The notes beneath the pieces were generated by a model, which worked only from the letters and a program-made list of their open reading frames with translations, ran no database searches and was not told the origin of the DNA. A stretch of DNA of 64,000 nucleotides from positions 64,001 through 128,000 of IMG/VR virus record IMGVR_UViG_3300030117_007612; one strand, written 5' to 3'. The DNA is from a virus. Its lineage: Duplodnaviria > Caudoviricetes. Each line of letters starts with the position of its first letter. The stretch's first letter is position 1. The position numbers and the translations under genes are program-made. Below, one piece after another: positions 44,207 to 63,054 of the stretch.

Positions 44207-44209
44207 ATT

Positions 44210-44754: not shown

Positions 44755-44981
44755 AAATCACAAAAGAACAATTGCGTAAGATTATTATGGAGGAGATATC
44801 CTCTGAAGGTGTTGTTGACATGGGCGGCGAGCCAGTTGTCACTGGCCCAGAAGGTGATGCATCCGGAGAGGCCCAAGCCGGCGCTCGCCTTAAAGATGTT
44901 ATTTTATATCTCGAAGGTAATGAAAGAGACGACTTGGCCGAACCACTTCGCAAGATTCAAGAAATGCTAGAGATGCTATAA
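44751..44981 (+). CDS. IIxEE-leader family protein
   Basis: Start corrected to ATG 44751: MKITKEQLRKIIMEEI. Confidence 0.7.
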   Translation: MKITKEQLRKIIMEEISSEGVVDMGGEPVVTGPEGDASGEAQAGARLKDVILYLEGNERDDLAEPLRKIQEMLEML

Positions 44982-45009
44982 TTATCGGCAGCAGGATAGG
45001 AGACTCACA

Positions 45010-45438
45010 ATGAAGATTACTGAATCGGAAATCATAAAATATATTAAAGAAGAGATGGAGTCTGATTCGGCTTTAGCTGATGCAATTGTAAAACTGTCCA
45101 ATAAGATAGACAACCTAGACGTGAGCATTGACTATCTGGCATCGGCTCTTACTGGCGAAGATGTTTTAGATATTGGCCTCGCGCAAAAAGCTTTTGGCAG
45201 ATTCAGAGCCGCCCCAACTGTAAGTGTTGGCCGTTCTGACATGTCAGAGGGCCTCGTTACAGAAGATGTCTACGACGAGGCGAAGCAAATTGCTAAAGAT
45301 CCCAAACAGATAGATCATCTCTTCCAGCTTCTACAGGCCGTCGTTAGCGTAGCTGCTGATATGAATATGATGGGTATGCGGCTAATGAAATTAGGAGATC
45401 TTCACAAACATGCGACAGAAAAATTCAAAAACAATTAG
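45010..45438 (+). CDS. IIxEE-leader family protein
   Basis: MKITESEIIKYIKEEM; AGGAG SD. Confidence 0.7.
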   Translation: MKITESEIIKYIKEEMESDSALADAIVKLSNKIDNLDVSIDYLASALTGEDVLDIGLAQKAFGRFRAAPTVSVGRSDMSEGLVTEDVYDEAKQIAKDPKQIDHLFQLLQAVVSVAADMNMMGMRLMKLGDLHKHATEKFKNN

Positions 45439-45685
45439 TAAGTTACAACTTAGGCAGATTGTCAAAGAAGAACTTAGGGCCGTTTTGAACGAAGGGCATT
45501 ATCATGACATGGGCGGCGAAGACGAAATGTACGATGCTTTGGATCCACATGGCATTGCAAAGATGTCAGATGCACAATTAGTAGATGCTGCCTACCGTGA
45601 TGGAATTGAAGAAATTCTAGTTTTAGACAACGAAGGCGATCTTGTAAATCGTGAAGAAGTCATAATGGCACTGAAAAATGTATGA
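45410..45685 (+). CDS. IIxEE-leader family protein
   Basis: ISKLQLRQIVKEELRAVLNE near the N-terminus; stop overlaps the terminase start. Confidence 0.65.
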   Translation: MRQKNSKTISKLQLRQIVKEELRAVLNEGHYHDMGGEDEMYDALDPHGIAKMSDAQLVDAAYRDGIEEILVLDNEGDLVNREEVIMALKNV

Positions 45686-47274: not shown

Positions 47275-49236
47275 ATGGCAATTAATCCTAAAAATCCAAG
47301 AAATCCGCAATCTCAATTATTCAAGAGTTTGACAAGATTGTTTTCCGGACCAATCATTAACTATCGTAGTCAGACCGGTCGAAAGATCAGAAGACAACAC
47401 TTGGATAAATATTCGTCAAGGTTCCGTTCAGCCAGTGGGCAACAGTTTAAACGGAGTACCTACAATCCACTAGACGTCGTTGCTGTTAATGCAATTGCAA
47501 ATCAAAGAAGAAGCGAAAGATATATTGACTTCGATCAAATGGAATACATGCCAGAGATTGCCTCGTCCTTAGACATATACGCAGATGAGATGACAACACA
47601 TTCAAGTCTCCAGCCAATGTTAAAAATACACTGCACCAACGAAGAAATCAAAGCAGTGCTTGATGTTCTGTATCACAACATAATGAACATTAATTACAAT
47701 TTATTTGGATGGTGCCGAACGATGTCTAAATACGGCGACTTCTTTTTGTATTTAGATATCGACGAAAAATATGGAGTTAAGTCAACCATAGCCCTGCCCT
47801 CTCAGGAGGTCGAAAGGCTTGAGGGATTAGACGCAACAAACCCAAATTATATTCAATATCAGTGGAATAATGCCGGAATGACGTTTGAGAATTGGCAGAT
47901 ATCTCACTTTAGAATCTTAGGAAACGATAAGTATGCGCCATACGGTACATCAATTTTAGAGCCGGCCCGAAGGATTTGGCGCCAACTTACTTTAATGGAA
48001 GACGCAATGATGGCATATCGTGTCATTCGCTCACCAGAGAGAAGGGTCTTCAAGATCGATGTTGGTTCAATTCCACCACAAGATGTCGAACAGTATATGC
48101 AAAAAATTGTAACACAGATGAAGCGCCACCAAGTTGTTGATCCTGACACCGGGCGCGTTGACCTTAGATATAATCCATTAAGTATTGAGGAGGATTACTT
48201 TATTCCTGTTCGTGCAAATTCCTCATCTGATATAACAACGCTCCCGGGCGGCTCGAACGCAACAGAGATTGACGATATTAAATATTTAAGAGATAAGCTG
48301 TTTTCTGCATTAAAGGTGCCACAATCTTATTTGTCACGCGGCGAAGGCGCCGATGAAGACAAAACGACATTAGCACAAAAAGATATCAGATTCGCAAGAA
48401 CCATTCAAAGATTACAGCGCGTTGTAGTATCTGAGTTAGAAAAGATTGGAATCATTCACTTATACACATTAGGTTTTAGAGGAGACGATCTTCTCAGTTT
48501 CAAGTTGGCATTAAACAATCCATCAAAAATCGCAGAACTGCAGGAACTTGAACACTGGAGATCTAAATTTGATACGGCCGCTGCAGCAAATGAGGGTTAT
48601 TTTTCGAGACGATGGGTTGCTGAAAAACTATTCAATATGTCCGAAGAAGAATTCCTTCGCAATCAAAGAGAGTTGTTTTATGATCGCAAGCAGGATTCTG
48701 CGTTGCAAGCGATTGCCGAAGCAGGCGCCCTCGGCGCCGAAGGCGGCGGATTGGGTGGCGATTTGGGTGGTGACCTAGGAGGCCTCGAAGCCGCCGAGGG
48801 ACCCGAAGCAGATCTAGAAACCGCACCGCCCCCCGCCGATGAGGTACCCCCGGGTGACGAATCAATGCTTCTCACTTCCCCAGAGGGCCCACCCCCGGGC
48901 CATAGAGATTCGCCTACAATTTATAAATCACCAGACGGCCATGGCACCAGCAAATATCATAGAGTAAAAGTCGACCAACGTCGTCTTGGGGCTTTAAGAA
49001 GAAACATGGCTAGGGCTGCCTCTCCGGAGGTAAATACCTATAGAAAGAACAATCTAGGCGCGCCAGAATTAAGAACCCATGCTCGCGGAAGTATTTACGA
49101 GCAACAAGGCCCTATTTATAATGACAATGAAAATCGTCTGTTCGAAATCAATCACGAAGTTAGGGGCTTAATTAAGTCGCTTGAAGAAAAAGAAAACATA
49201 GTGGAGTTAAAAAAGGATGAAACCAAAGCACAATAA
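47275..49236 (+). CDS. Portal vertex protein (T4 gp20-like)
   Basis: ARRIWRQLTLMEDAMMAYRVIRSPERRVFKIDVG, EDYFIPVR, DDIKYLRDKLFSALKVPQS; directly after terL. Confidence 0.96.
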   Translation: MAINPKNPRNPQSQLFKSLTRLFSGPIINYRSQTGRKIRRQHLDKYSSRFRSASGQQFKRSTYNPLDVVAVNAIANQRRSERYIDFDQMEYMPEIASSLDIYADEMTTHSSLQPMLKIHCTNEEIKAVLDVLYHNIMNINYNLFGWCRTMSKYGDFFLYLDIDEKYGVKSTIALPSQEVERLEGLDATNPNYIQYQWNNAGMTFENWQISHFRILGNDKYAPYGTSILEPARRIWRQLTLMEDAMMAYRVIRSPERRVFKIDVGSIPPQDVEQYMQKIVTQMKRHQVVDPDTGRVDLRYNPLSIEEDYFIPVRANSSSDITTLPGGSNATEIDDIKYLRDKLFSALKVPQSYLSRGEGADEDKTTLAQKDIRFARTIQRLQRVVVSELEKIGIIHLYTLGFRGDDLLSFKLALNNPSKIAELQELEHWRSKFDTAAAANEGYFSRRWVAEKLFNMSEEEFLRNQRELFYDRKQDSALQAIAEAGALGAEGGGLGGDLGGDLGGLEAAEGPEADLETAPPPADEVPPGDESMLLTSPEGPPPGHRDSPTIYKSPDGHGTSKYHRVKVDQRRLGALRRNMARAASPEVNTYRKNNLGAPELRTHARGSIYEQQGPIYNDNENRLFEINHEVRGLIKSLEEKENIVELKKDETKAQ

Positions 49237-50038
49237 AAAAAGAAATACTGCTTTTATATACGAATCTTTAATTAAAGAAATTACTAAAAGTATTATTGAA
49301 AAAAATGATAAAAAGAAAATCAAAACACTGAAGATAGTGAAGAAATATTTTTCAACTGGGTGTATTTTGAGAGAGGAGCTGGAACTTTACAAGAGTCTTT
49401 ATGAAAACTGTGCTTTGGAGAAAGACGAATGCGAAAAAGTTCTCAAAGAAGCTAAACTGCAACATAGATTCCTAAACCCACAGGTAGTGTTTAAGCAGCA
49501 GACAAAACTAATCAACGAGATTAACAAAGAATTAAGCTCGGATGTTTATAACAATTTTATTCCAAACTACAAAACCTTGGCATCCATATCTCAGATATTT
49601 AGTGGAAAACTAAACCCCAAGTCATCGATATTGTTGGAAAAAGAAATAGTTCAATATATGTGTGATACTTCCACTATTGATGAAAAAAATCTCAAACCAA
49701 TTGACAACCTTGTATTAAAGTCGTTTATTGGCAAATTCAATGAAAAGTATTCAAATGATTTATTAAGCGAGCAAAAATTGCTTTTAAGTCATTATATATC
49801 TTCTTTCTCGGATAACGGTGTTCAATTAAAAATGTTTTTGAATGAGGAATTGAGCAGATTAAAAACTGAATTAAAGAAATCACTATCTTTGGATGAGATT
49901 TCAAGCGATTCCATAATGTGTGAAAAAATAAACACCCTAATGGAAAAACTCAATTCTTATTCTAAAGTTGCAATAGATGAGAAAATGCTACGACAGATTT
50001 TAAAAACCCAAAATTTAGTTAAGGGAATTTATGAATAA
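49217..50038 (+). CDS. Hypothetical head-module protein
   Basis: 273-aa helical protein beginning KHNKKRNTAFIYESL, overlapping the portal end. Confidence 0.7.
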   Translation: MKPKHNKKRNTAFIYESLIKEITKSIIEKNDKKKIKTLKIVKKYFSTGCILREELELYKSLYENCALEKDECEKVLKEAKLQHRFLNPQVVFKQQTKLINEINKELSSDVYNNFIPNYKTLASISQIFSGKLNPKSSILLEKEIVQYMCDTSTIDEKNLKPIDNLVLKSFIGKFNEKYSNDLLSEQKLLLSHYISSFSDNGVQLKMFLNEELSRLKTELKKSLSLDEISSDSIMCEKINTLMEKLNSYSKVAIDEKMLRQILKTQNLVKGIYE

Positions 50039-50586
50039 TGTCTGTTAGCGTATCCATTGGAAAAGAACTTAATAAGCCAAAACAAAATCTCATAAGGCTT
50101 GAATTAAATATTCGTAAAGCCCTCAATGGCGATCTTATGATTTTCGATCATGGTGATATTGATATTGTTTTAAGTCCTGATGGCAATAAAATTGTAACGT
50201 TCGCGAAGGAGAACATGTCCGATACGGTATACGGCGCCCAAAATAGATTGTTTACTTTCCTTAGAAAAAAAGGAGTGATTGTTCCTGAGTCAGTTCAAGC
50301 AGGCAATGTGTATGGCTCAATGGAAGCAGTCATATTAGAATCAGTTGATGAAAACTTAAGCTCATCAAAGATTGCATTGTTAAATATTTCAAAATTTATT
50401 GATGATGAGCGGCCTTACTTTGAATTCGTCGATAGTATTGTTGATGAGTTTGAAGATGACATGACGGATCCGGAAAATATCGATAGCACTGATTTGGGAG
50501 ATGTTGAGCACTCTGTTGAAAAGGGCTCTATTAGGAAGGGATATGTGAGAGATCCATATTCTTTAAGTTATTTATACACAATTTAA
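50038..50586 (+). CDS. Hypothetical protein
   Basis: 182 aa, TAATG-coupled. Confidence 0.7.
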   Translation: MSVSVSIGKELNKPKQNLIRLELNIRKALNGDLMIFDHGDIDIVLSPDGNKIVTFAKENMSDTVYGAQNRLFTFLRKKGVIVPESVQAGNVYGSMEAVILESVDENLSSSKIALLNISKFIDDERPYFEFVDSIVDEFEDDMTDPENIDSTDLGDVEHSVEKGSIRKGYVRDPYSLSYLYTI

Positions 50587-50587
50587 A

Positions 50588-50595
50588 CTATTTAT
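50588..50595 (+). promoter_or_regulatory. CTANTTA box (putative late promoter)
   Basis: CTATTTAT before 50623. Confidence 0.5.
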
Positions 50596-50622
50596 AAGAG
50601 AAAGGTTTTAGGAGATTAAAAA

Positions 50623-51024
50623 ATGCCAGCAAATTCATGGAGATATCCACCCGGCTTAAACAACGTTGGATCATACCAAGTATCGGGTATGCCATATATC
50701 ACAGGCTCGGCTTCATTGACTTCGGGTAGTGAACACAAGATATCGTTCCCGAAAGTAACACGTGCTGTGACGGTGATGAACCACTCAAGTAACACTCTAA
50801 GGTTTTCGTTTGCCCCTACGGGGTCTAACGGAGATAGGGTTCAAACAGGGTTTCATTATATTGAACTAGATAGTGATGAAGATTCATTTAAATTGAATGT
50901 TAAATGTAAGGAGATTTATGTATCTTCTACAGCGGGCACAGTTGAGTATCGTGTTATTGCGGAATTGACCAATATTGATACCAATTCCATGGGTCCAATA
51001 TCCGGCTCTGGACTCACTGATTAA
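50623..51024 (+). CDS. Small beta-rich virion-like protein
   Basis: GLNNVGSYQVSGMPYITGS N-terminus; AGGAG SD; upstream CTATTTAT box. Confidence 0.65.
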   Translation: MPANSWRYPPGLNNVGSYQVSGMPYITGSASLTSGSEHKISFPKVTRAVTVMNHSSNTLRFSFAPTGSNGDRVQTGFHYIELDSDEDSFKLNVKCKEIYVSSTAGTVEYRVIAELTNIDTNSMGPISGSGLTD

Positions 51025-51038
51025 GAAGGGCAATAACA

Positions 51039-52976
51039 ATGGGGTTCAAACCGGGAAAGGGCGAAATTGCTGAAACTTTTAAAATCAGCGATGGAAGCAT
51101 AAAAGTAAAAGAGCAAGCAAATGCTGAAGCAGATGAAGCTGCTTACGGACAACTTTGGGTTAAATCAAATACTCCGTGCGATTTGTTTTTCACTGACGAC
51201 AGTGGCCAAGATATTCGATTAACTAACGACGGTGCTTTAGCTAGCTCTGGTGGCACGCTATCTGGCCTAGGCAGTACTGACAATGCCGTGCTGCGTGCAA
51301 ATGGCACCGGTGGCGAAACAGCCCAAGGGTCTGCAGCAACGATTACCGATGCCGGCGTTGTGTCTGGCAGCTCATATACGGGCTTTGCAACCCGCACAGA
51401 AAAAGTTGAGGTTACATCAGTCTCTGCATCCAGTGCTCAAGCAGCAACACTTTCTGGATCAGCAGCAACACTTGATAATTTAACCCTTGGAAACACCGCT
51501 GTTACATCAGATGCCGGCGAATTAAACCTACTTGACGGCAGCAGTGCCGGCTCGATTGCAAACAGTAAAGCTGTTGTTTATAGCTCAGTTGGAATTGTAA
51601 CAGGAAGCTCTCACAAAGCTTTCTCTGCAATTGCTACAGAAGGGGAATTTGCAACATCAGTTTCCTCCTCTCTGCATTTAGGCTCTATGATTTCCGCAAG
51701 CTTAACTGTTAGCGGCGGCCAACATCAAGGGTTTAGAGGTGACTTCGCGTTACTGTCTGGGTCTTCTGTCACAGTCGATAACGTCACGATTAAGAACACC
51801 GGCAGAGTAACCGGCAGCTTTATTGATTATAATTACGCTTTCGAACCCGACGCAGTAATCACTGCGCTTGAAATTGACGTTGACAAGGTAACCGCCACTA
51901 CGTCAAGTAATTTAATAACAGGGATTAAGGTTGATCTCGACAACACAACGGCCACTAACGGTACGAACACGATGATTGGCGGAAGCTTTACTCCAACATT
52001 AACGCACGCAGCGGATGCCGGAATATCGATTGTAAAAGGTGTTGAGATTGTGGCAACTGCCGGCGGCAATGGCCAAGGCACAGCCAGAGGCATCGAGATT
52101 AAATCTTCTGGTGGAGACTATAATCAAGGAATTTATATGAACGTTGCTAACGGTGGCGTAGACCTGAAGTGTGTAAGCTCTGCGGACGCTGGTGACTTCT
52201 TTACAATCTCTTGCGGTACCAATGGTGAAACAACACTTAAAACTAATGACGACGATGATGGAAATGCCAATTTTATTTGTGAAGCCGATGGCAATTTTAA
52301 AATTGACGCTAAAAATATCATTAAACTTGATTCTGAAATTGGCGACATACACTTTTTAGATAATGGCACTACTATGCTCGCCATTGATCTTGACAGCACC
52401 TCTGGATCAATCGGCGCCGACTTAATTTTCAAAGTCGAAGATGATGCCAAGAACTTAGTATTCCAGCAGAACAATGGTTCTGAGGTCGCAAGAATTCAAC
52501 ACACTGGTTCACTGGGATCAAACTGGAGAAGTGTAGAGCCGGGCCTCAACCACAAAAGGCAGGTGTTGGAAGTTTTGGCCGACGGCGCATCAGTAACGGC
52601 CACTCTCGCAGCATCGAATAGCGGGTGCATTGTGCTAGCAATACCCGTTAATGATGATATTGTAATTGTTTTACCCGCGGGTACCCCGGGCCTGTTCTAT
52701 GATATTTGGCTGGGTGAAGACGTTCCAAGTGGCAAAACTGTTAAAATTCGAACAAACGGAACAGACAACAATGATAGCATATATGGCTACTTTACTGTGC
52801 CCGCCGGCGGCAGTGGTGACGAAGTGACTTTTGACTTTACTGGCGACGTCTTAACCCTACAGGCAAACACAGCCAAGGGTGCGTGGGTTAAAGTAACCAA
52901 CGTTGTCGGCGGATCAAATGAAATTTGGCATGCTGAAGTCATCTCACAAACTGTTGCTCTGGTTGACAACTCATAG
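51039..52976 (+). CDS. Fibre/spike-like structural protein (mosaic)
   Basis: G/S/T/A-rich; TSDAGELNLLDG motif; shares modules with 56414 and 58699. Confidence 0.6.
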   Translation: MGFKPGKGEIAETFKISDGSIKVKEQANAEADEAAYGQLWVKSNTPCDLFFTDDSGQDIRLTNDGALASSGGTLSGLGSTDNAVLRANGTGGETAQGSAATITDAGVVSGSSYTGFATRTEKVEVTSVSASSAQAATLSGSAATLDNLTLGNTAVTSDAGELNLLDGSSAGSIANSKAVVYSSVGIVTGSSHKAFSAIATEGEFATSVSSSLHLGSMISASLTVSGGQHQGFRGDFALLSGSSVTVDNVTIKNTGRVTGSFIDYNYAFEPDAVITALEIDVDKVTATTSSNLITGIKVDLDNTTATNGTNTMIGGSFTPTLTHAADAGISIVKGVEIVATAGGNGQGTARGIEIKSSGGDYNQGIYMNVANGGVDLKCVSSADAGDFFTISCGTNGETTLKTNDDDDGNANFICEADGNFKIDAKNIIKLDSEIGDIHFLDNGTTMLAIDLDSTSGSIGADLIFKVEDDAKNLVFQQNNGSEVARIQHTGSLGSNWRSVEPGLNHKRQVLEVLADGASVTATLAASNSGCIVLAIPVNDDIVIVLPAGTPGLFYDIWLGEDVPSGKTVKIRTNGTDNNDSIYGYFTVPAGGSGDEVTFDFTGDVLTLQANTAKGAWVKVTNVVGGSNEIWHAEVISQTVALVDNS

Positions 52977-52992
52977 AGGATATAAGTAGGCG

Positions 52993-53217
52993 ATGCCATA
53001 CACATCATCAGGCAAGTGCGTTTATAAAAAAAACAAAGATGGCTCTCGTGGTAAAAAAGTGGGATGTACAAAGGGTCCCGTAAAGCAGTACCTTAAGGCT
53101 TTGTATGCTAATACCGATGAGGGCTTGGATAAAACTGTAACAGAAGAAACAATGAGACTAATTATTAGAGAAGAATTACAAGAATATCTAAAGGAGATTA
53201 CAAATGACAATGGATGA
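52993..53217 (+). CDS. Small basic protein with C-terminal IIREE helix
   Basis: MPYTSSGKCVYKK...GC...; C-terminal TEETMRLIIREELQEYLKE. Confidence 0.65.
   Translation: MPYTSSGKCVYKKNKDGSRGKKVGCTKGPVKQYLKALYANTDEGLDKTVTEETMRLIIREELQEYLKEITNDNG
53158..53165 (+). promoter_or_regulatory. CTANTTA box (putative late promoter) upstream of the tubulin gene
   Basis: CTAATTAT embedded in the upstream ORF, starting 46 nt before ATG 53204. Confidence 0.35.
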
Positions 53218-54253
53218 TTTTGATTTTATAGATCACTATGGCGAAGCCGAAGAGGTAGCCAACGAAGATCAGCTACCAGATAACGAAGTTGGCTCATCGC
53301 TAAACTGTGCTATTATTGGCGTTGGTGGAGGGGGCGGCAAAATGGCAAAAGCCTTTTTAGATATCGGCTACAATAAAACATTGTTGATTAATACTACTCC
53401 AAAAGATATCCCAAGCGACGTCGATGAATCACATGTAGTGCTGATTCCGGATGCTGATGGGATCGGAAAAGATGTCAGCTTGGGTAAATCCGTACTTGAC
53501 GCCAATAGCGCCGTTGTTGAAGATGCCTTGCGGACAAAACTTGGCAAGGTTGATTGGCTTATCGTATTATCAGGCGGTGGCGGAGGTACTGGTAGTGCCA
53601 CTGCTTCATTGCATTCTGTTTTCGAAAGATACTTAAAATCTGTTCAGGCCGATGGTGACATACTTTATGTCGCATCGTGGCCAACAGCACAAGAGTGCTT
53701 GAATCCCACAATTAGCAAAAATGCACTGTCACTTATTAATGACGTATCAAAGCACTCGCACATTGTGATCGACAATGAAAGGCAGGTTAAGTTACTCAGA
53801 GGCAAGGTTGGCATGCTTGGAATGTTTCCGTTTGCCAATACGGCGTTTGCCAAGCTTTTAACGCAGGTGCTCAGATTGTCTGCAGAACAGTCACCAATCC
53901 AGTCTTTTGATTCAAAAGATCTTGCTAGGTGCTTAAGCACAGATGGTAGAATGTTTATTGGGTCTACGATGATTGCTGACCCGGCCAGTCCCAACCTTGG
54001 ATCGATGATTTTACAAAATTGCCTGAAGCGCTCTCCCTGCCCGCAGCCCTCTGGGCGCCCAAAAACAGGCACACTACTATTGGTGGTGAGCCCTGAGATG
54101 GCGTCTGATCCAGAGATCAGCAAGCACCTAGATAATGCAATTTCGTACGTCGGAGGAAGAACAGAGACACTTTTTTCCGGAGTCTATGTTAAAGAGAACG
54201 TACCGGGCTTGGTTGCTATCTTGTGCATGAATGGTTTACCCAAAGGAAATTAG
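53204..54253 (+). CDS. Tubulin/FtsZ-family GTPase (PhuZ/TubZ/CetZ-like)
   Basis: GVGGGGGK, INTT, GIGKD, signature SGGGGGTGS, IVIDNE, FPFANT and T7-loop-like SFDSKDL. Confidence 0.92.
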   Translation: MTMDDFDFIDHYGEAEEVANEDQLPDNEVGSSLNCAIIGVGGGGGKMAKAFLDIGYNKTLLINTTPKDIPSDVDESHVVLIPDADGIGKDVSLGKSVLDANSAVVEDALRTKLGKVDWLIVLSGGGGGTGSATASLHSVFERYLKSVQADGDILYVASWPTAQECLNPTISKNALSLINDVSKHSHIVIDNERQVKLLRGKVGMLGMFPFANTAFAKLLTQVLRLSAEQSPIQSFDSKDLARCLSTDGRMFIGSTMIADPASPNLGSMILQNCLKRSPCPQPSGRPKTGTLLLVVSPEMASDPEISKHLDNAISYVGGRTETLFSGVYVKENVPGLVAILCMNGLPKGN

Positions 54254-54267
54254 CGGGAGATGTTAAA

Positions 54268-54735
54268 ATGAAAATAAGCAGACACCGCCTCATGCAGATT
54301 ATTCAAGAAGAGTATGATATAATGTTGCGTTCTGAAAAAAAAGAACGACTTGACGAAAGTGTTGTTTTAGAAGCTTCCATGTCTCAAAGCGAGGTGGCTC
54401 TCGCTTCAATTGAATCGGCGATTAACGGCACCTTGCACAATTTGTTAAAAGACTTTGTAGCTGAAACGGAAATTAAAAGCATTGTCGATAGTGCAGCTGA
54501 CGCCGTTGCAGGCAGGATTGGCATTGAGCTAGAAAGCATATATAATGAAAAGCAGGCACCTCTTGAGGAGGTGGTGATGACTCAAGAGCCAATGGATATT
54601 CTAGAAGAATTAAGAAGCTTGACAAATAAGTTATCATCGATATCCGGCAACGCACAGCCGTTTGAAAATATAGCATCGGATATGATAATACAGATTAATG
54701 ATTTAGAGGAAATTTTAACAACGGAGAAGGAATGA
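54268..54735 (+). CDS. IIxEE-leader family protein
   Basis: Start corrected to ATG 54268 (GGGAG SD): MKISRHRLMQIIQEEY. Confidence 0.7.
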   Translation: MKISRHRLMQIIQEEYDIMLRSEKKERLDESVVLEASMSQSEVALASIESAINGTLHNLLKDFVAETEIKSIVDSAADAVAGRIGIELESIYNEKQAPLEEVVMTQEPMDILEELRSLTNKLSSISGNAQPFENIASDMIIQINDLEEILTTEKE

Positions 54736-55067
54736 TAGAGTTGCTTAATTTATTGTGGTTTGTACTGGCGGCGTATGGTTTAACTCAAATTCTTATTTAC
54801 GGAACAATTTTCAACAAGATAAGGCCGACTAAACAGTGGCTTAATGGATTTGGAGAATTATTCCACTGCCCCATGTGTATGGGTTTTTGGGTTGGCGTAT
54901 TTTTATGCGGCGTTAGTACGTATACGCAACTATTTACGTTTGAGACATCTTTAATAAATTATTTTATTTTAGGTTGTGTTAGTTCAGGTACATCATATAT
55001 CCTGAACGTTTTATTTTGCGATAACGGAATACAAATAGGAGTTAGAAATGGGAAAGACATGGACTAG
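54732..55067 (+). CDS. Small membrane protein with CxxC (DUF1360-like)
   Basis: Three hydrophobic segments and LFHCPMCMGFW, resembling the DUF1360 C-P-x-C-x-x-x-W motif. Confidence 0.55.
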   Translation: MIELLNLLWFVLAAYGLTQILIYGTIFNKIRPTKQWLNGFGELFHCPMCMGFWVGVFLCGVSTYTQLFTFETSLINYFILGCVSSGTSYILNVLFCDNGIQIGVRNGKDMD

Positions 55068-55113
55068 TAAATGGATGTTGCAGCCAGTTCGCCATTGCTG
55101 CAAGGGGAGTTAG
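55048..55113 (+). CDS. Putative 21-aa microprotein
   Basis: MGKTWTSKWMLQPVRHCCKGS*; AGGAG SD upstream; stop 2 nt before the protease ATG. Confidence 0.45.
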   Translation: MGKTWTSKWMLQPVRHCCKGS

Positions 55114-55115
55114 CT

Positions 55116-55721
55116 ATGGGTAAGGTACTTTTACGAGAATTTTATGAATTATGTGAAGGGGGCGTCTGTCAGGATCTTTTAACCGAGGAAGAGAAGAGGT
55201 TTGTGGCCGGCGGCGGTATGATTTTGTCTGGAATTATGCAAAAATCAGACACTGTTAATGGAAATGGAAGAATTTATCCACACAAAGTTCTTGTTCGTGA
55301 GGTTGAAAACTACTCTAAGCTTGTAAAAGAGCGACGAGCGCTCGGAGAATTAGACCACCCAGACGACTCAGTGATCAATCTTAAGAATGCATCACACCTT
55401 TGCACCAGCATATGGTGGGAGGGGCAAGATGTCATGGGCAAGGTTAGAATTTTGGACACACCATCTGGAAAAGTACTGCAAGAGCTTGTAAAATCAGGTG
55501 TTAGCCTCGGAATTTCTTCAAGAGGAATGGGTTCTGTTAAAGAAAGCCAAAATGGCACAATTGTTGAAGATGATTTTCAGTTAATTTGTTTTGATTTTGT
55601 ATCAGAACCCTCAACACCCGGCGCCTACATGATGAAAGAGTCTAAAAGCTTAAAAGAATCAAACATCTTCACAAAAGCAGATAAAATCAACAGATTAATC
55701 AACGAGGCTCTAGATGAATAA
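55116..55721 (+). CDS. Prohead core protein protease (T4 gp21-like)
   Basis: NGNGRIYP, GELDHP (catalytic His), GISSRGMGS (catalytic Ser), DFVSEPS; start corrected to ATG 55116 (GGGGAG SD). Confidence 0.96.
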   Translation: MGKVLLREFYELCEGGVCQDLLTEEEKRFVAGGGMILSGIMQKSDTVNGNGRIYPHKVLVREVENYSKLVKERRALGELDHPDDSVINLKNASHLCTSIWWEGQDVMGKVRILDTPSGKVLQELVKSGVSLGISSRGMGSVKESQNGTIVEDDFQLICFDFVSEPSTPGAYMMKESKSLKESNIFTKADKINRLINEALDE

Positions 55722-56130
55722 GGCAGATTTAAAGAAGCTTATAAAACCACTAGTGAAAGAGTGCGTACAAGAAACCCTTCTAGAAGAAGGGTTGCTTTCT
55801 GGAATTGTAAGTGAGGTGGTAAAAGGAGTTTCCTCGGCACCACCAATCGTCGAGAAGGCAAAAACAGCAAAAACAGCACCGAAACAAGAACTTGATTACA
55901 AAAGAATAGCAGAGACCAAAAAGAAGATAAATCAACACCAAAAAAGACTATTAGACGCCATCGGCTCAGACGCCTACAATGGCGTTGATTTATTTGAGGG
56001 TACAAAACCGATTTCTGATAGCGGTGCCCCCAAGCCGGGCTCAACTGATTTGGGAGAACATGACGATCCGGGTGTTCCTTTCGCCGGACCATTGGCTGAA
56101 GCTTCCAAAATGTGGGGTAAATTAGTTTAA
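55714..56130 (+). CDS. Head-module protein with leader-helix variant
   Basis: MNKADLKKLIKPLVKECVQETLLEE. Confidence 0.65.
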   Translation: MNKADLKKLIKPLVKECVQETLLEEGLLSGIVSEVVKGVSSAPPIVEKAKTAKTAPKQELDYKRIAETKKKINQHQKRLLDAIGSDAYNGVDLFEGTKPISDSGAPKPGSTDLGEHDDPGVPFAGPLAEASKMWGKLV

Positions 56131-56361
56131 ATGAGAAAAAAATGTAATGTACATTTAAAATCCAGAAGAAACGAGCCGGCAGATCGGCTTATTAGAAGGT
56201 TTATAAAAAAAGTAAAAAAAGAGAAGATTGTTGAAGAAGTTAGAGATCGAAAGCATTATAAAAAGCCATCGGTCAAAAAGAAGCAAAAGAGGATTAAAGC
56301 CCAACGCGAAAGGAAAAGACAAGAAGCCCGACGGTTAAGACGTCGGCAAAGGCGCAAATAG
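56131..56361 (+). CDS. rpsU: Phage-encoded 30S ribosomal protein bS21
   Basis: NEPADRLIRRFIKK...EEVRDRKHYKKPS matches the bS21 pattern NE..D..LRRF.....EVR.R..Y.KP; highly basic. Confidence 0.9.
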   Translation: MRKKCNVHLKSRRNEPADRLIRRFIKKVKKEKIVEEVRDRKHYKKPSVKKKQKRIKAQRERKRQEARRLRRRQRRK

Positions 56362-56372
56362 TTTTATTTTAA

Positions 56373-56380
56373 CTATTTAT
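56373..56380 (+). promoter_or_regulatory. CTANTTA box (putative late promoter)
   Basis: CTATTTAT before 56414. Confidence 0.5.
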
Positions 56381-56413
56381 GTTTAAGTATCAGTATGTGG
56401 AGTATGTGAGTAG

Positions 56414-58699
56414 ATGGGAATAGGATGGGCATATATCGATTGTGATCCCGAGATTGTAACGGGATCGACCGGGCCAACTGGCTCAGTTATGTTTAAAGAT
56501 GGCCATAGATCTATTCGTGGTCAAGAAGAGCTTATGTGGATCCGCCCGGCCGCAGCTATCTCTGAGGGATTTACAATTGCATCGGGCAGTGCGTACACAA
56601 GCACACTCGACGTCGGCGCCACCTTCCACCCGCCATTCCTCCAAGTATCAGGAAACATAAGAGTTAGCGGCACAATTTTTGCAAACAGTTTCGATGTTAT
56701 AACAACAACTTTAACTGAGATACATCAGTCTGGATCAACCAGCTTTGGTCAGGGTGTTAACCGCGATAAACACAGCTTTTCAGGTTCCTTACAGGTAACA
56801 GGCGCCAGCACGCTGAATGCAATAAATTCATATGTTTTAGATAGATTTGGAATTGGCGAAAAAGAACCGAAATCTACACCTCACAGCGCAGGGTCTTCGA
56901 ATGATGCGAAGGCAGAAATATCAGTTGCTGATGGCGAGGCTTTAACGGCACTTGTAATCGATGCGAATGATGTCGATGAAGTAGCAATGCACATCGAAGC
57001 AGCACAAACAACCGCTAATGTTTTAGAAATTACAGCAGATGCAGTGACAACAGCAAATGTAATTGATGTTTCAGCAGACGCTCTAACTTCAGGCGCCGCG
57101 ATGAAAATTCAAGACAACTCAGCAAACAACACTTCCAGAGATTTAGTGCTTATTCATCAACAACACGCTAGCGCTACCTCAGCTACTGCATTGAAAGTTA
57201 TATCTGCAGGCGCCCAGACTGGAATGCTCTTGGACAAGAACTATTCGAGCGTTAATGCATCGACCGTCACTGGCTTCACTATTGACTTAGATAAAACTGG
57301 CACTTCGACTACTGCGAACACGATCTATGGGGCTACCATCGACGTGGATAACACAACAGCAACAGCCGGCGTCAATAACATGACTGGTATTCAGGTGACC
57401 CCGACCTTGACACATGCTGCAAACGCCGGCACGCCAACTGTAAAAGGCGCAGTCATTACTGCAACCGGCGGTGGCAACGGCACATCAGCCGCCACCGGCA
57501 TGGAGTTGACTGCTACTGGCGCCGATACCAACAAGGGTCTCATAATCAACTGTGCTGATGGAGGTCAGGATTTGCTAATTGTTAGCTCTGCCGACACCGC
57601 GGACTATTTTGCAATTGAAGTAACAGCCGCCGGCGCAACCACCCTTAAAACGTATGAGGATGGCTCCGATCACGGCGCAGATCTTACAATGGATATTGAT
57701 GGCGCAATTAAGATTGACGGCGACGGGGTTGAGATAGAAAATGATTCAGACTCGGGAGCAACGGCCCTTCTTATTGATAATGATGATACAGACGCGATTG
57801 CCCTTAGTATCGCCGCTGAGAATATTGATGCGAATGTTGTTGATATTGCAGCAGATGCGGTTACAACTGCTAAGGCGCTTAATATTTCAGCGGATGCGCT
57901 CACGACTGGTACTGCGTTTTATGTCGAAAGCGAATCAACGAACAACAGCACTAGAAATGTAGCAGCAGTTGTGCAAAACGCCGGCGCTGCCATTAACGCC
58001 ACTGCGCTACTTGTACAATCTGATAGTAACGGCGGCGTTGCTGGCATTAAAATTGATAGAAATGCAAACGGTACTGCAGCTGTTGATGCTGTAACCGGTC
58101 TTCAAATCGATCTAGATCAGACTGGAGAGATCACAAGCGCCACCGGTGTTGTGGTTGGAATCCAAACAGATATCGAAACCAACGTCGCCGGCGACGGCAC
58201 GTTAAATTCCTATGGTCACAGAATTGTGATGACCGGCGATGCTGATGGAACACATACAAACACTGGCCTTTCAATTAATTTAGGTCAGGCCGACATCAAC
58301 ACTCATATTGAGTTACTTTCTTCCGCCGATACCGGCGATAAATGCACGATTTCAACAGGTCTCGCCGGCGCAACAACAATTTTAACGGTTGATGATGATG
58401 GTGCGGACGCCCATCTTACAATAAATCCCGATGGCAATTTACTTCTTAATGCTGCTGGTGACATTATAGTCGATCCAACTGGCAATGATATTCTTCCTCT
58501 TAACGATAATGACATTAGCTTGGGTTCTGCTTCGAATCGATGGGCGCACATTTATACAACACTTATTACAACTGGTGACCTTCGTTTAAATAATGATAGA
58601 GGCGATTGGTTGATTGTCGAGGAAGCAGACTATTTGAGTATAAGGAATCAAAAAACAGGAAAGCTGTACAAATTCGTATTAGAGGAGATTAAAGAGTAA
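56414..58699 (+). CDS. Fibre-like structural protein
   Basis: A/T/G/D-rich beta repeats; C-terminal RWAHIYT..ITTGDLRLNN.RGDW...TGKLYKFVLEEI resembles the C-terminal domain of T4-like cyanophage fibres. Confidence 0.7.
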   Translation: MGIGWAYIDCDPEIVTGSTGPTGSVMFKDGHRSIRGQEELMWIRPAAAISEGFTIASGSAYTSTLDVGATFHPPFLQVSGNIRVSGTIFANSFDVITTTLTEIHQSGSTSFGQGVNRDKHSFSGSLQVTGASTLNAINSYVLDRFGIGEKEPKSTPHSAGSSNDAKAEISVADGEALTALVIDANDVDEVAMHIEAAQTTANVLEITADAVTTANVIDVSADALTSGAAMKIQDNSANNTSRDLVLIHQQHASATSATALKVISAGAQTGMLLDKNYSSVNASTVTGFTIDLDKTGTSTTANTIYGATIDVDNTTATAGVNNMTGIQVTPTLTHAANAGTPTVKGAVITATGGGNGTSAATGMELTATGADTNKGLIINCADGGQDLLIVSSADTADYFAIEVTAAGATTLKTYEDGSDHGADLTMDIDGAIKIDGDGVEIENDSDSGATALLIDNDDTDAIALSIAAENIDANVVDIAADAVTTAKALNISADALTTGTAFYVESESTNNSTRNVAAVVQNAGAAINATALLVQSDSNGGVAGIKIDRNANGTAAVDAVTGLQIDLDQTGEITSATGVVVGIQTDIETNVAGDGTLNSYGHRIVMTGDADGTHTNTGLSINLGQADINTHIELLSSADTGDKCTISTGLAGATTILTVDDDGADAHLTINPDGNLLLNAAGDIIVDPTGNDILPLNDNDISLGSASNRWAHIYTTLITTGDLRLNNDRGDWLIVEEADYLSIRNQKTGKLYKFVLEEIKE

Positions 58700-61600
58700 T
58701 GGCCAAAATAGTAATAACCTCAGCAGGTATATCCGGTTCAGCAGGATCGGTAGCCATTACAGGCTCATTTGTTGTTACCGGATCCGAAGGCGAAATTACA
58801 GTTTCCGGAAGCGGAACCGAGCTTAGTGGCGCCCATGGATCCTCGACCACCACATCGGGCTCATCTACATTCTACGACGCCGCCGGCAGCAGCACGTCAA
58901 CCTCTGCGACTGGCTCAGTATCTACCGGCTCAGCAGGCTCCGCAACGCACGGCTCTGGTTCCTCAACATACACCGATGCTGATGGCACACACTCAACTTC
59001 TGCAACTGGTTCATACACTACGGGTTCCGGCGGATCAACATCGACAACATCAGGCTCTACATCCCACACAAGTGCTGATGGTAGCACCACTTCGACATCT
59101 GCGACTGGTTCTTATATTAGTGGCTCCGGAGGCGGAGCCGGAACTGGCTCTGGCGGCTCAGCAACCCACAGTTCGGGTTCATCAATTTACACAAGCGCTG
59201 ACGGTAGCACACACTCAACTTCTGCAACTGGCTCATTAACCACAGGCTCAGGAGGTTCCACCGAAACAACATCAGGATCTACATCGTATACAGACGCTGG
59301 TGGAAGCACCACTACTGTTTCTGCAACTGGTTCATATACCACAGGTTCTGGAGGTTCCACCGAAACAACAACGGGATCATCTACATACACAGGCGCTGAT
59401 GGTGGCACAGCCATAGTCTCTTCAGTTGGATACGTAGCTAGTGGTTCCGGTGGAGAGTCATCTACAACATCTGGCTCAACCAGCTACACAGACGCTGGTG
59501 GAAGCAGTACTTCGACATCTGCGACCGGCTCATCTATGACTGGTTCGGGCGGATCTGCAACCCATGGATCGGGTTCATCCACATATACAGACGCCGGCGG
59601 ATGTACTGGGTCGATGTCCGCAACTGGTTCATACACTACGGGTTCCGGCGGATCAACATCGACAACATCAGGCTCGACCACACACACAGACGCTGGTGGA
59701 AGCAGTACTTCGACATCTGCGACCGGCTCATCTATGACTGGTTCGGGCGGATCTGCAACCCATGGATCGGGTTCATCCACATATACAGACGCCGGCGGAA
59801 GTACCACTTCGACATCTGCGACTGGCTCTTATATGAGCGGGTCGACCCCGGGAACCACTACCACAACGCCGGGCGGGACTACATACGAAGACACAGACAG
59901 CACAACTATGCACTCAACCAGTGGTTCGCACTATAGTGGCTCAACGCCGGAAAGCGGCTCTGCCGGCAGCACAACGATTACAGATGGCACAGTTGAGGTA
60001 ACTGGATCCGTCACAATTTCTGGCTCAAGCCCCGCCTTAACAATTATGGCCGGCGAACTAATAGTTAGTGGCTCATCGATACTTGGCTCAACCATCGACC
60101 ACACAACCACTATAGGCAGCCACCTTACAGCATCCTATGGATTGGTTGCGCCAACACACGGAATTAGCGGAGCATATGTTACAGCCTATGATGGTCGTTT
60201 CCCGGGTCACGTGTCATCATCTCTTTATAAAGGCTCGATGGTCTCTGCTAGCTTGTTAGTGACAGGTGGAGAAGTTAAAGCACACCGCGGTACATTCGGC
60301 TTGATGGTTACTGAGTTTCTTACGATGTCAAAGGGCGCCCTTGTTGAGGATGATGACAAAGTCCACTTTGGCACAGATCAAGAATCACACATCAGGTACG
60401 ATGAGGCCGGCCAAGATTTCCTAACAATTTCAGGCTCAGATGCAGGTGGCCTTGTTCTAAGCGGTTCTAGCTTGGTAATCGACACTGACACCGTGGAAAG
60501 CGGTTCCCGCGCCGGCGGCGGAAGCTACTTGGCTATGACAACAACTGGTAAAATTGTGTTGTCGACTCCAGATGGCGGCGGCGGCGGTTCCGCTAGAAGC
60601 GTTTCGGGTGATGACGACGATGGCGTTATAACTTGGAAAACATCTGATAACACTTTTACTGTTGAGGGCAATCTTACTTTTGACGGTAACACACTTACCG
60701 TCGGCGGTCTGGGCGTTGTAACCGGTAGTCAGTTAATGGCGTATGGCATAACCGGATCGCTAGCGACAATTCAAGAGATTACTGGTGGCTGGGCTGATAT
60801 GCATAAGTTTGCCGGCGACAAGGTCGAAGTTGGCACTCACGTTTCATCTTCGCTTCTGTATGGTACAACATTGTCTGCGTCAACTCTTGTAAGTGGCGGT
60901 TTGCATATGGGCCATACCGGCAAATTTGATATTCTGTCAGCATCGACGGTGTATGCTCACGCCTTCTCCCCATCGACCGTATCAGCATCTACAGAAATAA
61001 CCGGCGGCGCCGTCTCGGCATTTGGAATTACTGGAACACTCGGAACATTCAGTGGCGTCGTCAGTGCATCTTCTTACGAAGGTTTTGCTGTGCGAACCAC
61101 ACACGGAGAACACGCTGGTACAGTCTCTGCATCAGTATTCATAGGATCGAATGTATCAGCCTCAACAGAAATCACCGGTGGTTGGCACAGAGGACACACT
61201 GGCAAATTTGATATTCTGTCAGCATCGACGATACATGCTCATGTCTTCTCTCCATCGACTATCTCCGCCTCGCTATATTTAACTGGTGGTCATGTTTATG
61301 CATACGGTATAACCGGCTCAAAAGCGACAATTACAAGCATCAGTGCTACGGAAGTCACATCATCTGTATTGTTGGGATATTCGCATACTGGCGACGAATT
61401 AATTGCACACAGCCATGTATCAGCGGCTCTATTCTTAACCGGTGGGCACGTCTATGCTTACGGCGTTACCGCTTCATTGGGAACATTCAGCGGCGTCGTC
61501 AGTGCGTCTTCTTATGAGGGTTTTGCCGTACGAACTACTCATGGCGAACATGCTGGCACAGTTTCTGCATCAGTATTCATAGGATCGAATGTATCAGCTT

Positions 61601-63054
61601 CTACGGAAATCACCGGTGGTTGGCATAGGGGACACACCGGCAAATTTGACATTCTGTCAGCATCGACGGTGCATGCTCACGTCTTCTCCCCATCGACCGT
61701 ATCAGCATCTATAGAAATAACTGGTGGCGCAGTCTCCGCTTACGGAATTACTGGTACGCTGGGCACATTCAGTGGCGTTGTCAGTGCATCTTCTTATGAA
61801 GGTTTTGCTGTACGAACCACACACGGAGAACATGCCGGCACAGTCTCCGCATCAGTATTCATAGGATCGAACGTGTCAGCTTCTACGGAAATCACCGGTG
61901 GTTGGCATAGAGGATTCAAATTTGAAGGACCCAAGGGTGAATTTGCAACACATGTTTCGTCTTCACTGTTGTTTGGTACAACATTGTCTGCCTCCACTAT
62001 TGTAAGCGGTGGTTTGCACATGGGACACACTGGCAAATTTGATATTCTGTCAGCATCAACCATGTACGCTCATGTTTGGGCGCCTACGACCGTATCAGCA
62101 TCTACAGAAATAACTGGTGGCGCAGTCTCCGCTTACGGAGTCACTGGTACACTTGGAACATTCTTTGGACTGCTCTCGGCATCCTCTGTGCACGGCTTCT
62201 CTCATGTTGGAGGTGAGGCTACATATACCGGATTCGTCGAAGCCGGCACTTATATGAGCGCATCTACTCACTTTACAGGTGGTCACGTATATGCTTACGG
62301 AGTCACTGGTACACTTGGAACGTTCTTCGGTCTTCTTTCAGCATCCTCTGTGCATGCCTTCTCTCACATTGGAGGCGAAGCGGTATACACAGGTTTCGTT
62401 GAAGCTGGAACCCACATGAGCGCATCTACTCACTTTACAGGTGGTCACGTATACGGATACGGCTTAACAGGTTCACAGGCAACTTTGACACATGCAGCAA
62501 CATCGCCGCCAACATATGCGTCATCGCAATTAAGACTAAACTATGATGATGCTAATTTTGCTTTTGTCGGAGTTGACTCAATTGGAAGCCTTTCAATTGA
62601 ATCCACAGCGATGTCGTCTCGCCAAAAGGGTGTTGACGCACTCCCTGCAAACAAATCGCATGGAGAAATAGTGTTCTTCGGAACAGAGGACTCCAACGAT
62701 ACTCTGGCCATAGGAAAGCTTATGTATCTTGCAACGGGTGGGATCTGGAAGCACGCTGACGCTGACGCGGTAGCATCATGTGGTGGTGTCATGCTTGGCA
62801 TTGCACTGGGCACTGGGATATCAGATGGATTATTGGTCAATGGTTACGCAAACATATCGGGCACACTGACGGCATCGCCGGTGTATAAATTAACCCACGG
62901 ATCAGCACTTTATGTATCTACGACGCCGGGAGAGATGACCCAAACACAGCCCACAGCAAGCGGGGATGTATCGCGAGTGATCGGTTATGCAGTAAGCTCT
63001 TCTACTGGTAAGACGATATATTTTAATCCAAGTGGTGATTGGGTTGAGCAGTGA
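58699..63054 (+). CDS. Long repetitive fibre (possible head fibre)
   Basis: 33-aa S/T/G repeats, His-containing SAS...G repeats, and a C-terminal LMYL..GGIWKHADA...LYVSTTPG...VIGYA...IYFNP domain resembling capsid-cement/DUF2190-type domains. Confidence 0.65.
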   Translation: MAKIVITSAGISGSAGSVAITGSFVVTGSEGEITVSGSGTELSGAHGSSTTTSGSSTFYDAAGSSTSTSATGSVSTGSAGSATHGSGSSTYTDADGTHSTSATGSYTTGSGGSTSTTSGSTSHTSADGSTTSTSATGSYISGSGGGAGTGSGGSATHSSGSSIYTSADGSTHSTSATGSLTTGSGGSTETTSGSTSYTDAGGSTTTVSATGSYTTGSGGSTETTTGSSTYTGADGGTAIVSSVGYVASGSGGESSTTSGSTSYTDAGGSSTSTSATGSSMTGSGGSATHGSGSSTYTDAGGCTGSMSATGSYTTGSGGSTSTTSGSTTHTDAGGSSTSTSATGSSMTGSGGSATHGSGSSTYTDAGGSTTSTSATGSYMSGSTPGTTTTTPGGTTYEDTDSTTMHSTSGSHYSGSTPESGSAGSTTITDGTVEVTGSVTISGSSPALTIMAGELIVSGSSILGSTIDHTTTIGSHLTASYGLVAPTHGISGAYVTAYDGRFPGHVSSSLYKGSMVSASLLVTGGEVKAHRGTFGLMVTEFLTMSKGALVEDDDKVHFGTDQESHIRYDEAGQDFLTISGSDAGGLVLSGSSLVIDTDTVESGSRAGGGSYLAMTTTGKIVLSTPDGGGGGSARSVSGDDDDGVITWKTSDNTFTVEGNLTFDGNTLTVGGLGVVTGSQLMAYGITGSLATIQEITGGWADMHKFAGDKVEVGTHVSSSLLYGTTLSASTLVSGGLHMGHTGKFDILSASTVYAHAFSPSTVSASTEITGGAVSAFGITGTLGTFSGVVSASSYEGFAVRTTHGEHAGTVSASVFIGSNVSASTEITGGWHRGHTGKFDILSASTIHAHVFSPSTISASLYLTGGHVYAYGITGSKATITSISATEVTSSVLLGYSHTGDELIAHSHVSAALFLTGGHVYAYGVTASLGTFSGVVSASSYEGFAVRTTHGEHAGTVSASVFIGSNVSASTEITGGWHRGHTGKFDILSASTVHAHVFSPSTVSASIEITGGAVSAYGITGTLGTFSGVVSASSYEGFAVRTTHGEHAGTVSASVFIGSNVSASTEITGGWHRGFKFEGPKGEFATHVSSSLLFGTTLSASTIVSGGLHMGHTGKFDILSASTMYAHVWAPTTVSASTEITGGAVSAYGVTGTLGTFFGLLSASSVHGFSHVGGEATYTGFVEAGTYMSASTHFTGGHVYAYGVTGTLGTFFGLLSASSVHAFSHIGGEAVYTGFVEAGTHMSASTHFTGGHVYGYGLTGSQATLTHAATSPPTYASSQLRLNYDDANFAFVGVDSIGSLSIESTAMSSRQKGVDALPANKSHGEIVFFGTEDSNDTLAIGKLMYLATGGIWKHADADAVASCGGVMLGIALGTGISDGLLVNGYANISGTLTASPVYKLTHGSALYVSTTPGEMTQTQPTASGDVSRVIGYAVSSSTGKTIYFNPSGDWVEQ
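58825..59850 (+). repeat. Tandem ~99-nt (33-aa) coding repeats, about 10 units
   Basis: Unit SATGSYTT-GSGGSTET-TSGSTSYT-DAGGSTTTV; 59488-59601 is identical to 59686-59799 (offset 198 nt). Confidence 0.9.
60780..62470 (+). repeat. Dispersed and tandem coding repeats within the fibre
   Basis: FSGVVSASSYEGFAVRTTHGEHAG block at 61048, 61486 and 61768; GHTGKFDILSAST x4; 162-nt tandem duplication at 62134/62296. Confidence 0.9.

Follow-up and report, generated by a model that had tools for sequence, protein, structure and literature searches.

What is a tubulin-like GTPase doing among the head genes of a T4-like phage? The question is raised by an open reading frame (ORF) at positions 53204..54253 (+ strand, 349 aa) of a 64,000-nucleotide stretch of viral DNA, hereafter the window, which covers bases 64001-128000 of an IMG/VR virus record of 203,368 bp, classed as complete by CheckV. 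Judged by its motifs and its modeled fold, the ORF is a complete, catalytically intact GTPase of the tubulin/FtsZ superfamily, and its family was not found described in the literature searched. An earlier note on the window had recognized the GTPase and had proposed that it works with its immediate neighbors as a late cytoskeletal module for prohead trafficking; the first of these claims is borne out below, and the second is not supported by the gene orders of related phages.

Motifs, fold and family of the phage tubulin

The sequence contains the T1 loop GVGGGGGK (residues 39-46; 53318..53341, +), the T4 tubulin signature SGGGGGTGS (residues 123-131; 53570..53596, +) and the T7 synergy loop FDSKD (residues 235-239; 53906..53920, +), in agreement with the GVGGGGG, SGGGGGTGS and FDSKD elements from which an intact family member had been proposed. 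Across 20 homologues with a mean column identity of 69%, all of the nucleotide-loop motifs are invariant, including G39, G41, G42, G44, G45 and K46 of the T1 loop and G126-G130 of the T4 signature, and so are D236, K238 and D239 of the T7 loop. The NTT..D, ADGIGKD, SWPTAQE and DNER loops are also present and are invariant or nearly so. HMMER alignments with S. aureus FtsZ and 3zid place D236 and D239 opposite D209 and D212 of FtsZ. A strong AAGGAG lies 8 nt 5' of the ATG, and the chain stops 4 residues past the last core strand, S10, without a C-terminal tail or peptide.

In the Pfam scan, the ORF matches PF00091 with 33.0 bits (E 9e-8), which is exactly the gathering cut-off; because the score only equals the cut-off, this match alone is borderline evidence, and the assignment was settled by an AlphaFold2 (AF2) model, Foldseek and exhaustive structural alignment. 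The AF2 model, built on 20 homologues, has a predicted local distance difference test score (pLDDT) of 89 and a predicted TM-score (pTM) of 0.87 and displays the two-domain tubulin/FtsZ architecture, with a GTPase domain, H7 (residues 204-226), the T7 loop (227-236), H8 (237-244) and an activation domain, the final strand spanning residues 336-345. Foldseek matches the model to FtsZ, CetZ and TubZ at E ~1e-20. In the structural alignments, the highest Z scores are obtained for TubZ of B. cereus (4ei7, 32.2) and Haloferax CetZ2 (4b45, 32.0), followed by a Methanosaeta CetZ-like protein (3zid, 30.1), two other TubZ proteins (28-29), FtsZ (27.3), eukaryotic, Asgard and bacterial tubulins (22-24) and three PhuZ structures (approximately 20). 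The superposition on TubZ, CetZ and FtsZ spans about 290-310 residues at Z 27-32. Co-folding of two copies with GTP gave a score of 0.00 without controls, a value that weighs neither for nor against self-assembly.

A comparison with the characterized members of the superfamily reveals partial likeness to each of them. TubZ is the best structural match (Z 32.2, 28.8 and 28.4 for Bacillus pXO1 RepX 4ei7, pBtoxis 3m8k and Clostridium phage c-st 4xcq, with root-mean-square deviations of 2.4-2.7 Å); it is likewise borne by mobile elements or phages and has an intact GTPase and T7 loop, and the c-st protein is the second-best PDB match by sequence. However, the identity to TubZ is 17-21%, and the phage tubulin has no H11 helix or tail, was not found with a TubR or tubC, occurs in T4-like phages of lytic type and carries its candidate docking peptide at the N-terminus. 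CetZ has similar T3 and T5 loops and provides the best PDB sequence match, at full length and E 4e-9, whereas it is an archaeal, cellular protein with a role in cell shape, shares 19-21% identity and has a CetZ_C domain for which no match is found here. FtsZ has the same two-domain core ending at the last strand and near-identical GGGGG, GGGTGS and xxDxxD motifs, but the identity is 17-20%, and an acidic N-terminal arm is present instead of a C-terminal linker and peptide. PhuZ (201phi2-1, phiKZ and Goslar) is also a phage-encoded tubulin, dispensable yet beneficial, and offers the precedent for positioning DNA and capsids; it is nonetheless the most distant prokaryotic relative (TM ~0.53 in BFVD), bears an acidic tail at its C-terminus and is accompanied by chimallin and by multisubunit RNA polymerases of the phage.

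Assignment to each of these families was rejected. For FtsZ proper, TIGR00065 of NCBIfam gives 31.4 bits, below its cut-off of 295.2, and the C-terminal linker and anchor-binding peptide are missing. For PhuZ, phrog_4733 matches only residues 35-134 at E 5e-4, the acidic C-terminal tail is lacking, and a profile search of the PDB (E <= 10) returned no PhuZ chain. The Pfam scan (E <= 0.1) returned none of TubZ_C, TubZ-like_C and CetZ_C (PF21011) in addition to PF00091. Membership of CetZ is opposed by the lack of PF21011, by the viral origin of the gene and by a phage-borne bS21 gene that suggests a bacterial host, and membership of TubZ, the type III partition GTPase, by the lack of a TubR-like match, a conserved small neighbor, repeats at 49000-57000 and a C-terminal helix.

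When 1.84 billion representative proteins were searched with a profile, members of the family proper (P0121, P0122, P0124 and fragments) scored down to E-105, beyond which the scores fall to E-34, the level of a diffuse group of unnamed tubulin-like proteins. Of the three proteins of this group that were looked up, two are on phage-like contigs, one next to SNF2 and DnaB genes and the other 3.7 kb upstream of a T4-type portal that bears an intein, and the third (P0146) is on a cellular-looking contig. In a distant phage with a related tubulin (L085/L086, 12873-16268), two inteins split the T4-type portal, and neighboring genes bear inteins as well. In the ESM Atlas, the closest clusters are viral without exception, some with TubZ-like C-terminal domains, and the identity to the nearest PDB, BFVD and AFDB cluster entries is 12-21%. 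A tblastn search of 50,697 GenBank phage records with the tubulin gave no match, and the wider tubulin-like radiation touches only Bacillus phage G gp138 (25% identity).

A maximum-likelihood tree, in line with the phylogeny suggested by the earlier note, groups the family as a clade of its own (99% support) at the end of a long stem. It does not name a sister group: the references (E. coli FtsZ, two TubZ and phiKZ PhuZ, with no CetZ sequence) are all on very long branches, and the pairing with c-st TubZ may reflect long-branch attraction. The protein is filed as a member of a new family because it is neither FtsZ nor PhuZ, is without the tails of TubZ and CetZ, is set apart by the drop in profile scores and is at most 21% identical to its nearest entries. 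On sequence and model evidence, this is a separate, virus-restricted family of the superfamily, with a predicted fold nearest to TubZ and CetZ and a domain content that is minimal and FtsZ-like.

The most distinctive element is an acidic-aromatic arm at the N-terminus (residues 1-33, DDFDFIDHYGE ... QLPDN; 53204..53302, +), which is a candidate docking peptide. The arm contains 11 Asp/Glu and zero Lys/Arg residues, and the chain ends with the core, as the earlier note had described in reporting an acidic N-terminal extension and no FtsZ-type C-terminal linker or peptide. Residues D5, F6, F8, H11, L24 and N27 are invariant in the 20 homologues, like the catalytic loops. In the 68 unique family members, the unit [DE][DE]F[DG][FML] occurs one to three times in the arm, LP[ED]N comes after it, and 0-60 variable acidic residues precede these elements. 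The pLDDT of residues 1-20 is about 51. Short acidic-aromatic peptides form the C-termini of FtsZ, c-st TubZ and phiKZ PhuZ, where they bind anchors, adaptors or the next subunit. The simplest reading, by analogy, is that the function of the tail may have moved to the N-terminus in the phage tubulin. The termini of FtsZ project from opposite faces of the filament, and N-terminal docking would therefore invert the orientation of the filament relative to its partner.

Genomic setting, distribution and optional presence

The phage is a member of an abundant, uncultured clade of marine T4-like myoviruses with genomes of about 150-205 kb, and nearly all of its genes are on the + strand. The tubulin gene is located between a T4-type, gp20-like portal gene (47275..49236, +; PF07230, E 1e-78) and a gp21-like prohead core serine protease gene of family S77 (55071..55721, +; PF03420, E 6e-33; phrog_207, E 5e-57), and the relatives carry terminase (Terminase_6N), a gp23-type capsid protein, a head-tail adaptor and a tail sheath, which upholds the earlier placement of the gene in a T4-like phage between portal and prohead protease. 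The closest cultured portals, those of Microcystis phage Mel-JY01 and Flavobacterium phage immuto, are 38-39% identical. A gene for ribosomal protein bS21 is present within the head module (56131-56361; PF01165, E 2e-12) and at the same place in most relatives, and this phage-borne bS21 suggests that the host is bacterial. Further hints at the host are the 38% portal identity to Flavobacterium phages and family members on contigs binned with Flavobacteriales and Hyphomonadaceae.

The family is widespread in marine data. More than 1000 homologue clusters (90% identity) come from the marine data of Tara, JGI and ENA, with an identity of 68-99% among the best 120, at least 252 IMG/VR stretches encode a member, and near-identical DNA occurs in marine metagenomes from six studies. 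The sequencing-run searches listed no RNA data set with such DNA, a result that has no bearing on expression. Among prokaryotes (185,579 species, one genome each), the only carriers are three contigs of 2.7-4.7 kb from metagenome-assembled genomes (MAGs), two from the Flavobacteriales MAG SZUA-1004 (L225 and L226) and one from a Hyphomonadaceae MAG (L227); they are probably mis-binned phage DNA and provide a weak hint at the host. Nonsynonymous divergence (dN) across the family is 0.07-0.30 and synonymous divergence (dS) is saturated, and the family is under strong purifying selection.

The head-module genes of the window were mapped onto 80 related loci, and all ORFs of these loci were clustered. 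The tubulin gene is co-oriented with its neighbors, which are virion genes wherever they can be identified, but it occupies at least five slots in the late virion block and has no constant neighbor. In the window and the near-copy L003, the order is leader protein, tubulin, leader protein, DUF1360 and protease; in 14 loci it is portal, g49217, g50038, DUF1360, tubulin and protease; and in 3 loci it is protease, g55714, S21, tubulin and the capsid genes. In about 30 loci, the gene follows SbcCD and precedes a run of small leader proteins and, farther on, terminase, and in about 16 loci it follows the major capsid protein and one further gene and precedes the head-tail adaptor and, farther on, the tail sheath. 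Pfam and PHROG scans of the genes directly upstream of tubulin in the other gene orders gave no informative partner. With at least five slots and no gene that travels with the tubulin gene, the conserved cytoskeletal module proposed earlier is not supported.

The gene is also optional. The genome G001 (IMGVR_UViG_3300008740_000001, loci L174-L184), obtained by portal-anchored retrieval, is 203,859 bp long, has direct terminal repeats and is rated 100% complete. It is syntenic with the source genome (terminase 70%, portal 69%, protease 79% and capsid protein 65% identical), yet neither the family profile, nor PF00091, for which the source genome served as a positive control, nor tblastn finds a tubulin in it. 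The complete genomes G006-G008 carry the gene, some of them with portals more distant than that of G001. The tubulin gene has thus been lost or moved repeatedly and is accessory. G001 is also without the large fiber genes 22661 and 58699 and most of 51039.

The same comparison bears on the gene that had been proposed as the membrane anchor of the tubulin, a DUF1360 membrane protein with a CPMC motif (54732..55067, +; PF07098, 23.8 bits, cut-off 21; phrog_781). Whatever the gene order, DUF1360 lies between g50038 and the protease, also in the tubulin-less G001, in which these three genes are contiguous; it therefore stays with the portal-protease block when tubulin is 5-15 kb away or absent. 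Because G001 has no tubulin and the slots vary, the tubulin is not obligatory for head assembly, and DUF1360 is not a dedicated anchor. Genes that co-vary with tubulin between four complete tubulin-bearing genomes and the one tubulin-less genome are a few small unknowns, among them a SWIM-like protein, a cupin and a 127-aa protein with a transmembrane (TM) segment and a helical part, and this comparison carries no statistical weight. The 127-aa protein (genome 173364-173747), with a membrane segment at its N-terminus and a helical tail, was found in each of the five tubulin-bearing genomes that were compared but not in the single tubulin-less one; with one such genome, it is no more than a lead to an anchor.

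The two genes that directly flank the tubulin gene in the window had been proposed as adaptors. The upstream gene (52993..53217, +) encodes a small basic protein of 74 aa with a C-terminal ...RLIIREEL helix that falls in a 51-member leader cluster, and the downstream gene (54268..54735, +) encodes a leader-tagged protein of 155 aa (MKISRHRLMQIIQEEY...) whose likeness elsewhere is mostly confined to the N-terminal leader. The leader helix (...L..II.EE) is indeed present in both proteins, as is a CxxC-type motif, CPMC, in the membrane protein, so the description of the flanking genes is accurate. However, each of the two genes lies beside tubulin only in the near-identical locus and is missing from G001, and the relatives of their products share little past the leader helix: a hidden Markov model of the 54268 leader helix matches more than 100 otherwise unrelated small ORFs in the 80 loci. 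The neighbors of the tubulin gene are not conserved, an outcome specified beforehand as decisive, and the adaptor and anchor parts of the proposal fail.

The leader-tagged genes form variable islands located before terminase and around the tubulin gene, whose slot usually falls within such an island. A very large and diverse group of small proteins, alike only in an N-terminal MK[IL][TS]..L.QIIKEE helix, is encoded in the window (43341-45685, 52993-53217, 54268-54735 and 55714-56130) and in loci L005-L082, and a second leader, MKLLMENWRKF, is found on other immediate neighbors of tubulin. The leaders look like the capsid-targeting sequences of T4 with their L/I-x-E protease sites, and by analogy the leader-tagged proteins are more likely to be packaged internal proteins than adaptors. 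None of the 68 unique tubulin family members carries a packaging-type leader.

A promoter-like box, ACTAATTA, is present 47 nt upstream of the tubulin ATG (53157..53164, +), inside gene 52993. The box CTAATTAT, to which the earlier note had drawn attention and which lies at 53158, is part of the 8-mer ACTAWTTA, of which the genome contains 29 copies. Eighteen of these 29 are located 23-73 nt upstream of a gene start, compared with ~6% expected by chance, and the genes that they precede include fiber, sheath-like and capsid-adjacent genes. The 8-mer is also found upstream of tubulin in relatives in which the gene lies next to leader proteins as in the window, behind SbcCD or near the major capsid gene, and it is often preceded by AAAT, window copies being located at, for example, 33289, 50587, 53157, 56372 and 63119. 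ACTAWTTA is a candidate phage-specific promoter, and its sequence context suggests that the tubulin gene has its own promoter of the structural-gene class. A scan for sigma-70 promoters and terminators did not exceed the shuffled expectation, and the classical T4 late promoter TATAAATA has only 3 occurrences in the genome. The location in the late virion block, behind a box shared with structural genes, agrees with the late-gene placement suggested earlier.

The ORF at 38828-41977, the SbcCD gene that the tubulin gene directly follows in about 30 relatives, encodes a 1049-aa protein in which an SbcD-like phosphoesterase (equivalent to T4 gp47) is fused to an SbcC/Rad50-like ATPase (equivalent to T4 gp46). 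A primase is also encoded in the window. Large Gly/Ser/Thr-rich, fiber-like genes are interspersed in the head module (51039-52976, 56414-58699 and 58699-63054) and are absent or much reduced in the relatives L002 and G001.

Proposed role and alternatives

The reading that we favor, and to which we assign an even chance of being correct, is that the phage tubulin is an accessory, late, filament-forming GTPase that uses its N-terminal arm as a docking peptide and aids the spatial organization of infection. The gene would be transcribed late from its own ACTAWTTA-type promoter, alongside the structural genes. The protein would bind and hydrolyze GTP and assemble head to tail into filaments, in which the T7 loop of one subunit would complete the GTP site of the next, and the arm would dock a partner or a neighboring subunit, in place of the C-terminal tails of FtsZ, TubZ and PhuZ. 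The filaments may give spatial order to the cell late in infection, for example by placing phage DNA or proheads, and would increase the yield while remaining dispensable for virion assembly, a role like that of PhuZ in nucleus-forming phages.

Several observations weigh against this proposal. The positioning role rests on the analogy with PhuZ, yet within the superfamily this protein is the member that least resembles PhuZ in structure, and chimallin has not been found: tblastn and phmmer searches of the 203-kb genome with phiKZ gp54, as suggested earlier together with a search for TubR, gave no match, although these methods have little sensitivity for a protein that diverges so strongly. T4-type virion genes argue against a chimallivirus. 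The context could not be named for about 14 of the 80 loci, and in the divergent member P0122 the gene is located among small genes and genes of nucleotide metabolism rather than virion genes. The promoter-like box of the tubulin gene also encodes RLII of the neighboring helix and may be driven by coding constraint. No docking partner for the arm emerged from the analysis. Finally, tblastn finds no family member in the GenBank phage records, and no cultured phage or known host carries the family.

A broader form of the favored reading, advanced tentatively, is that the family constitutes a third kind of phage cytoskeleton, that of ordinary T4-like ocean phages that do not form a nucleus. Its docking peptide, moved to the N-terminus, would project from the opposite face of the filament, and filaments made late would take hold of proheads, DNA or a site on the membrane and thereby order virion production in the host cell.

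The strongest rival, although an unlikely one, is host take-over, in which the tubulin perturbs or replaces the division or shape machinery of the host, either by competing for an anchor through its arm or by forming ectopic polymers that would block septation and enlarge the cell. The arm loosely resembles the FtsZ C-terminal peptide (DDFDFIDHY in the arm, DYLDIPAFL at the end of E. coli FtsZ and IDINDFF at the end of c-st TubZ), the gene is optional, as host-manipulation genes often are, and a CetZ-like fold ranks at the top of the structural matches, CetZ proteins being known to control cell shape. However, an identity of 17-20% to FtsZ makes co-polymerization unlikely, and in most lineages the gene is among late virion genes rather than early genes. 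To our knowledge, the division inhibitors of phages are small peptides and not full GTPases, which also counts against this explanation.

It is improbable that the tubulin is itself a virion protein that enters the prohead along with the leader-tagged proteins, is injected and acts early in the next infection. Several gene orders do place the gene in islands of proteins with MK[IL][TS]..L.QIIKEE or MKLLMENW leaders, and its position in the window is that of the prohead-core genes of T4, but the leader is absent from the tubulin in 68 of 68 unique members, and we know of no precedent for a polymerizing GTPase inside a packed head, which counts against packaging.

About as little probability is given to a partition system of TubZ type that segregates the phage genome while the phage persists as a carrier or plasmid-prophage. 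In its favor, TubZ proteins head the structural matches (Z 28-32), the c-st protein is the second-best PDB sequence match, and nearby ESM Atlas clusters contain TubZ-like_C domains. Against this, tblastn and phmmer searches of the genome with TubR of c-st and pBtoxis gave no match, with limited sensitivity, and no conserved small winged-helix neighbor is present; no iterons or tandem repeats occur near the tubulin gene at 49000-57000, and ParB_N has no match above the cut-off in the source genome or in four relatives. Additionally, the protein is without a C-terminal tail or H11 helix, and the genome looks like that of a lytic T4-type phage.

A GTPase that retains the tubulin fold as a regulatory switch or chaperone and does not polymerize is just as doubtful. 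In its favor, assembly of the phage tubulin is a prediction from sequence, but the T7 aspartates, which are needed only for hydrolysis across the interface between subunits, are invariant, and the nucleotide loops are intact, whereas the monomeric members of the superfamily known to us have lost T7 aspartates or nucleotide-loop residues.

The least probable explanation is the original prohead-trafficking module of tubulin, 52993 and 54268 as adaptors and DUF1360 as anchor: the four genes are adjacent in the window and DUF1360 is directly upstream of tubulin in 14 related loci, but 52993 and 54268 are kept beside tubulin only in the near-identical locus, and the position of DUF1360 is independent of tubulin.

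Meaning for phage tubulins

Phage tubulins are represented by PhuZ in nucleus-forming jumbo phages and by TubZ in plasmid-like prophages. The present family would add a third setting, that of abundant marine T4-like phages in which neither a phage nucleus nor a partition adaptor was found. In this protein, a short arm with repeated acidic-aromatic units is attached to an otherwise bare FtsZ-like core, at the terminus opposite to that used in all characterized relatives, and this placement allows a clean test of how tail peptides set filament contacts and polarity. Additionally, complete genomes with and without the gene, with G001 as the minus-tubulin comparator, would provide a natural comparison of the contribution of the tubulin to infection once a host is found.

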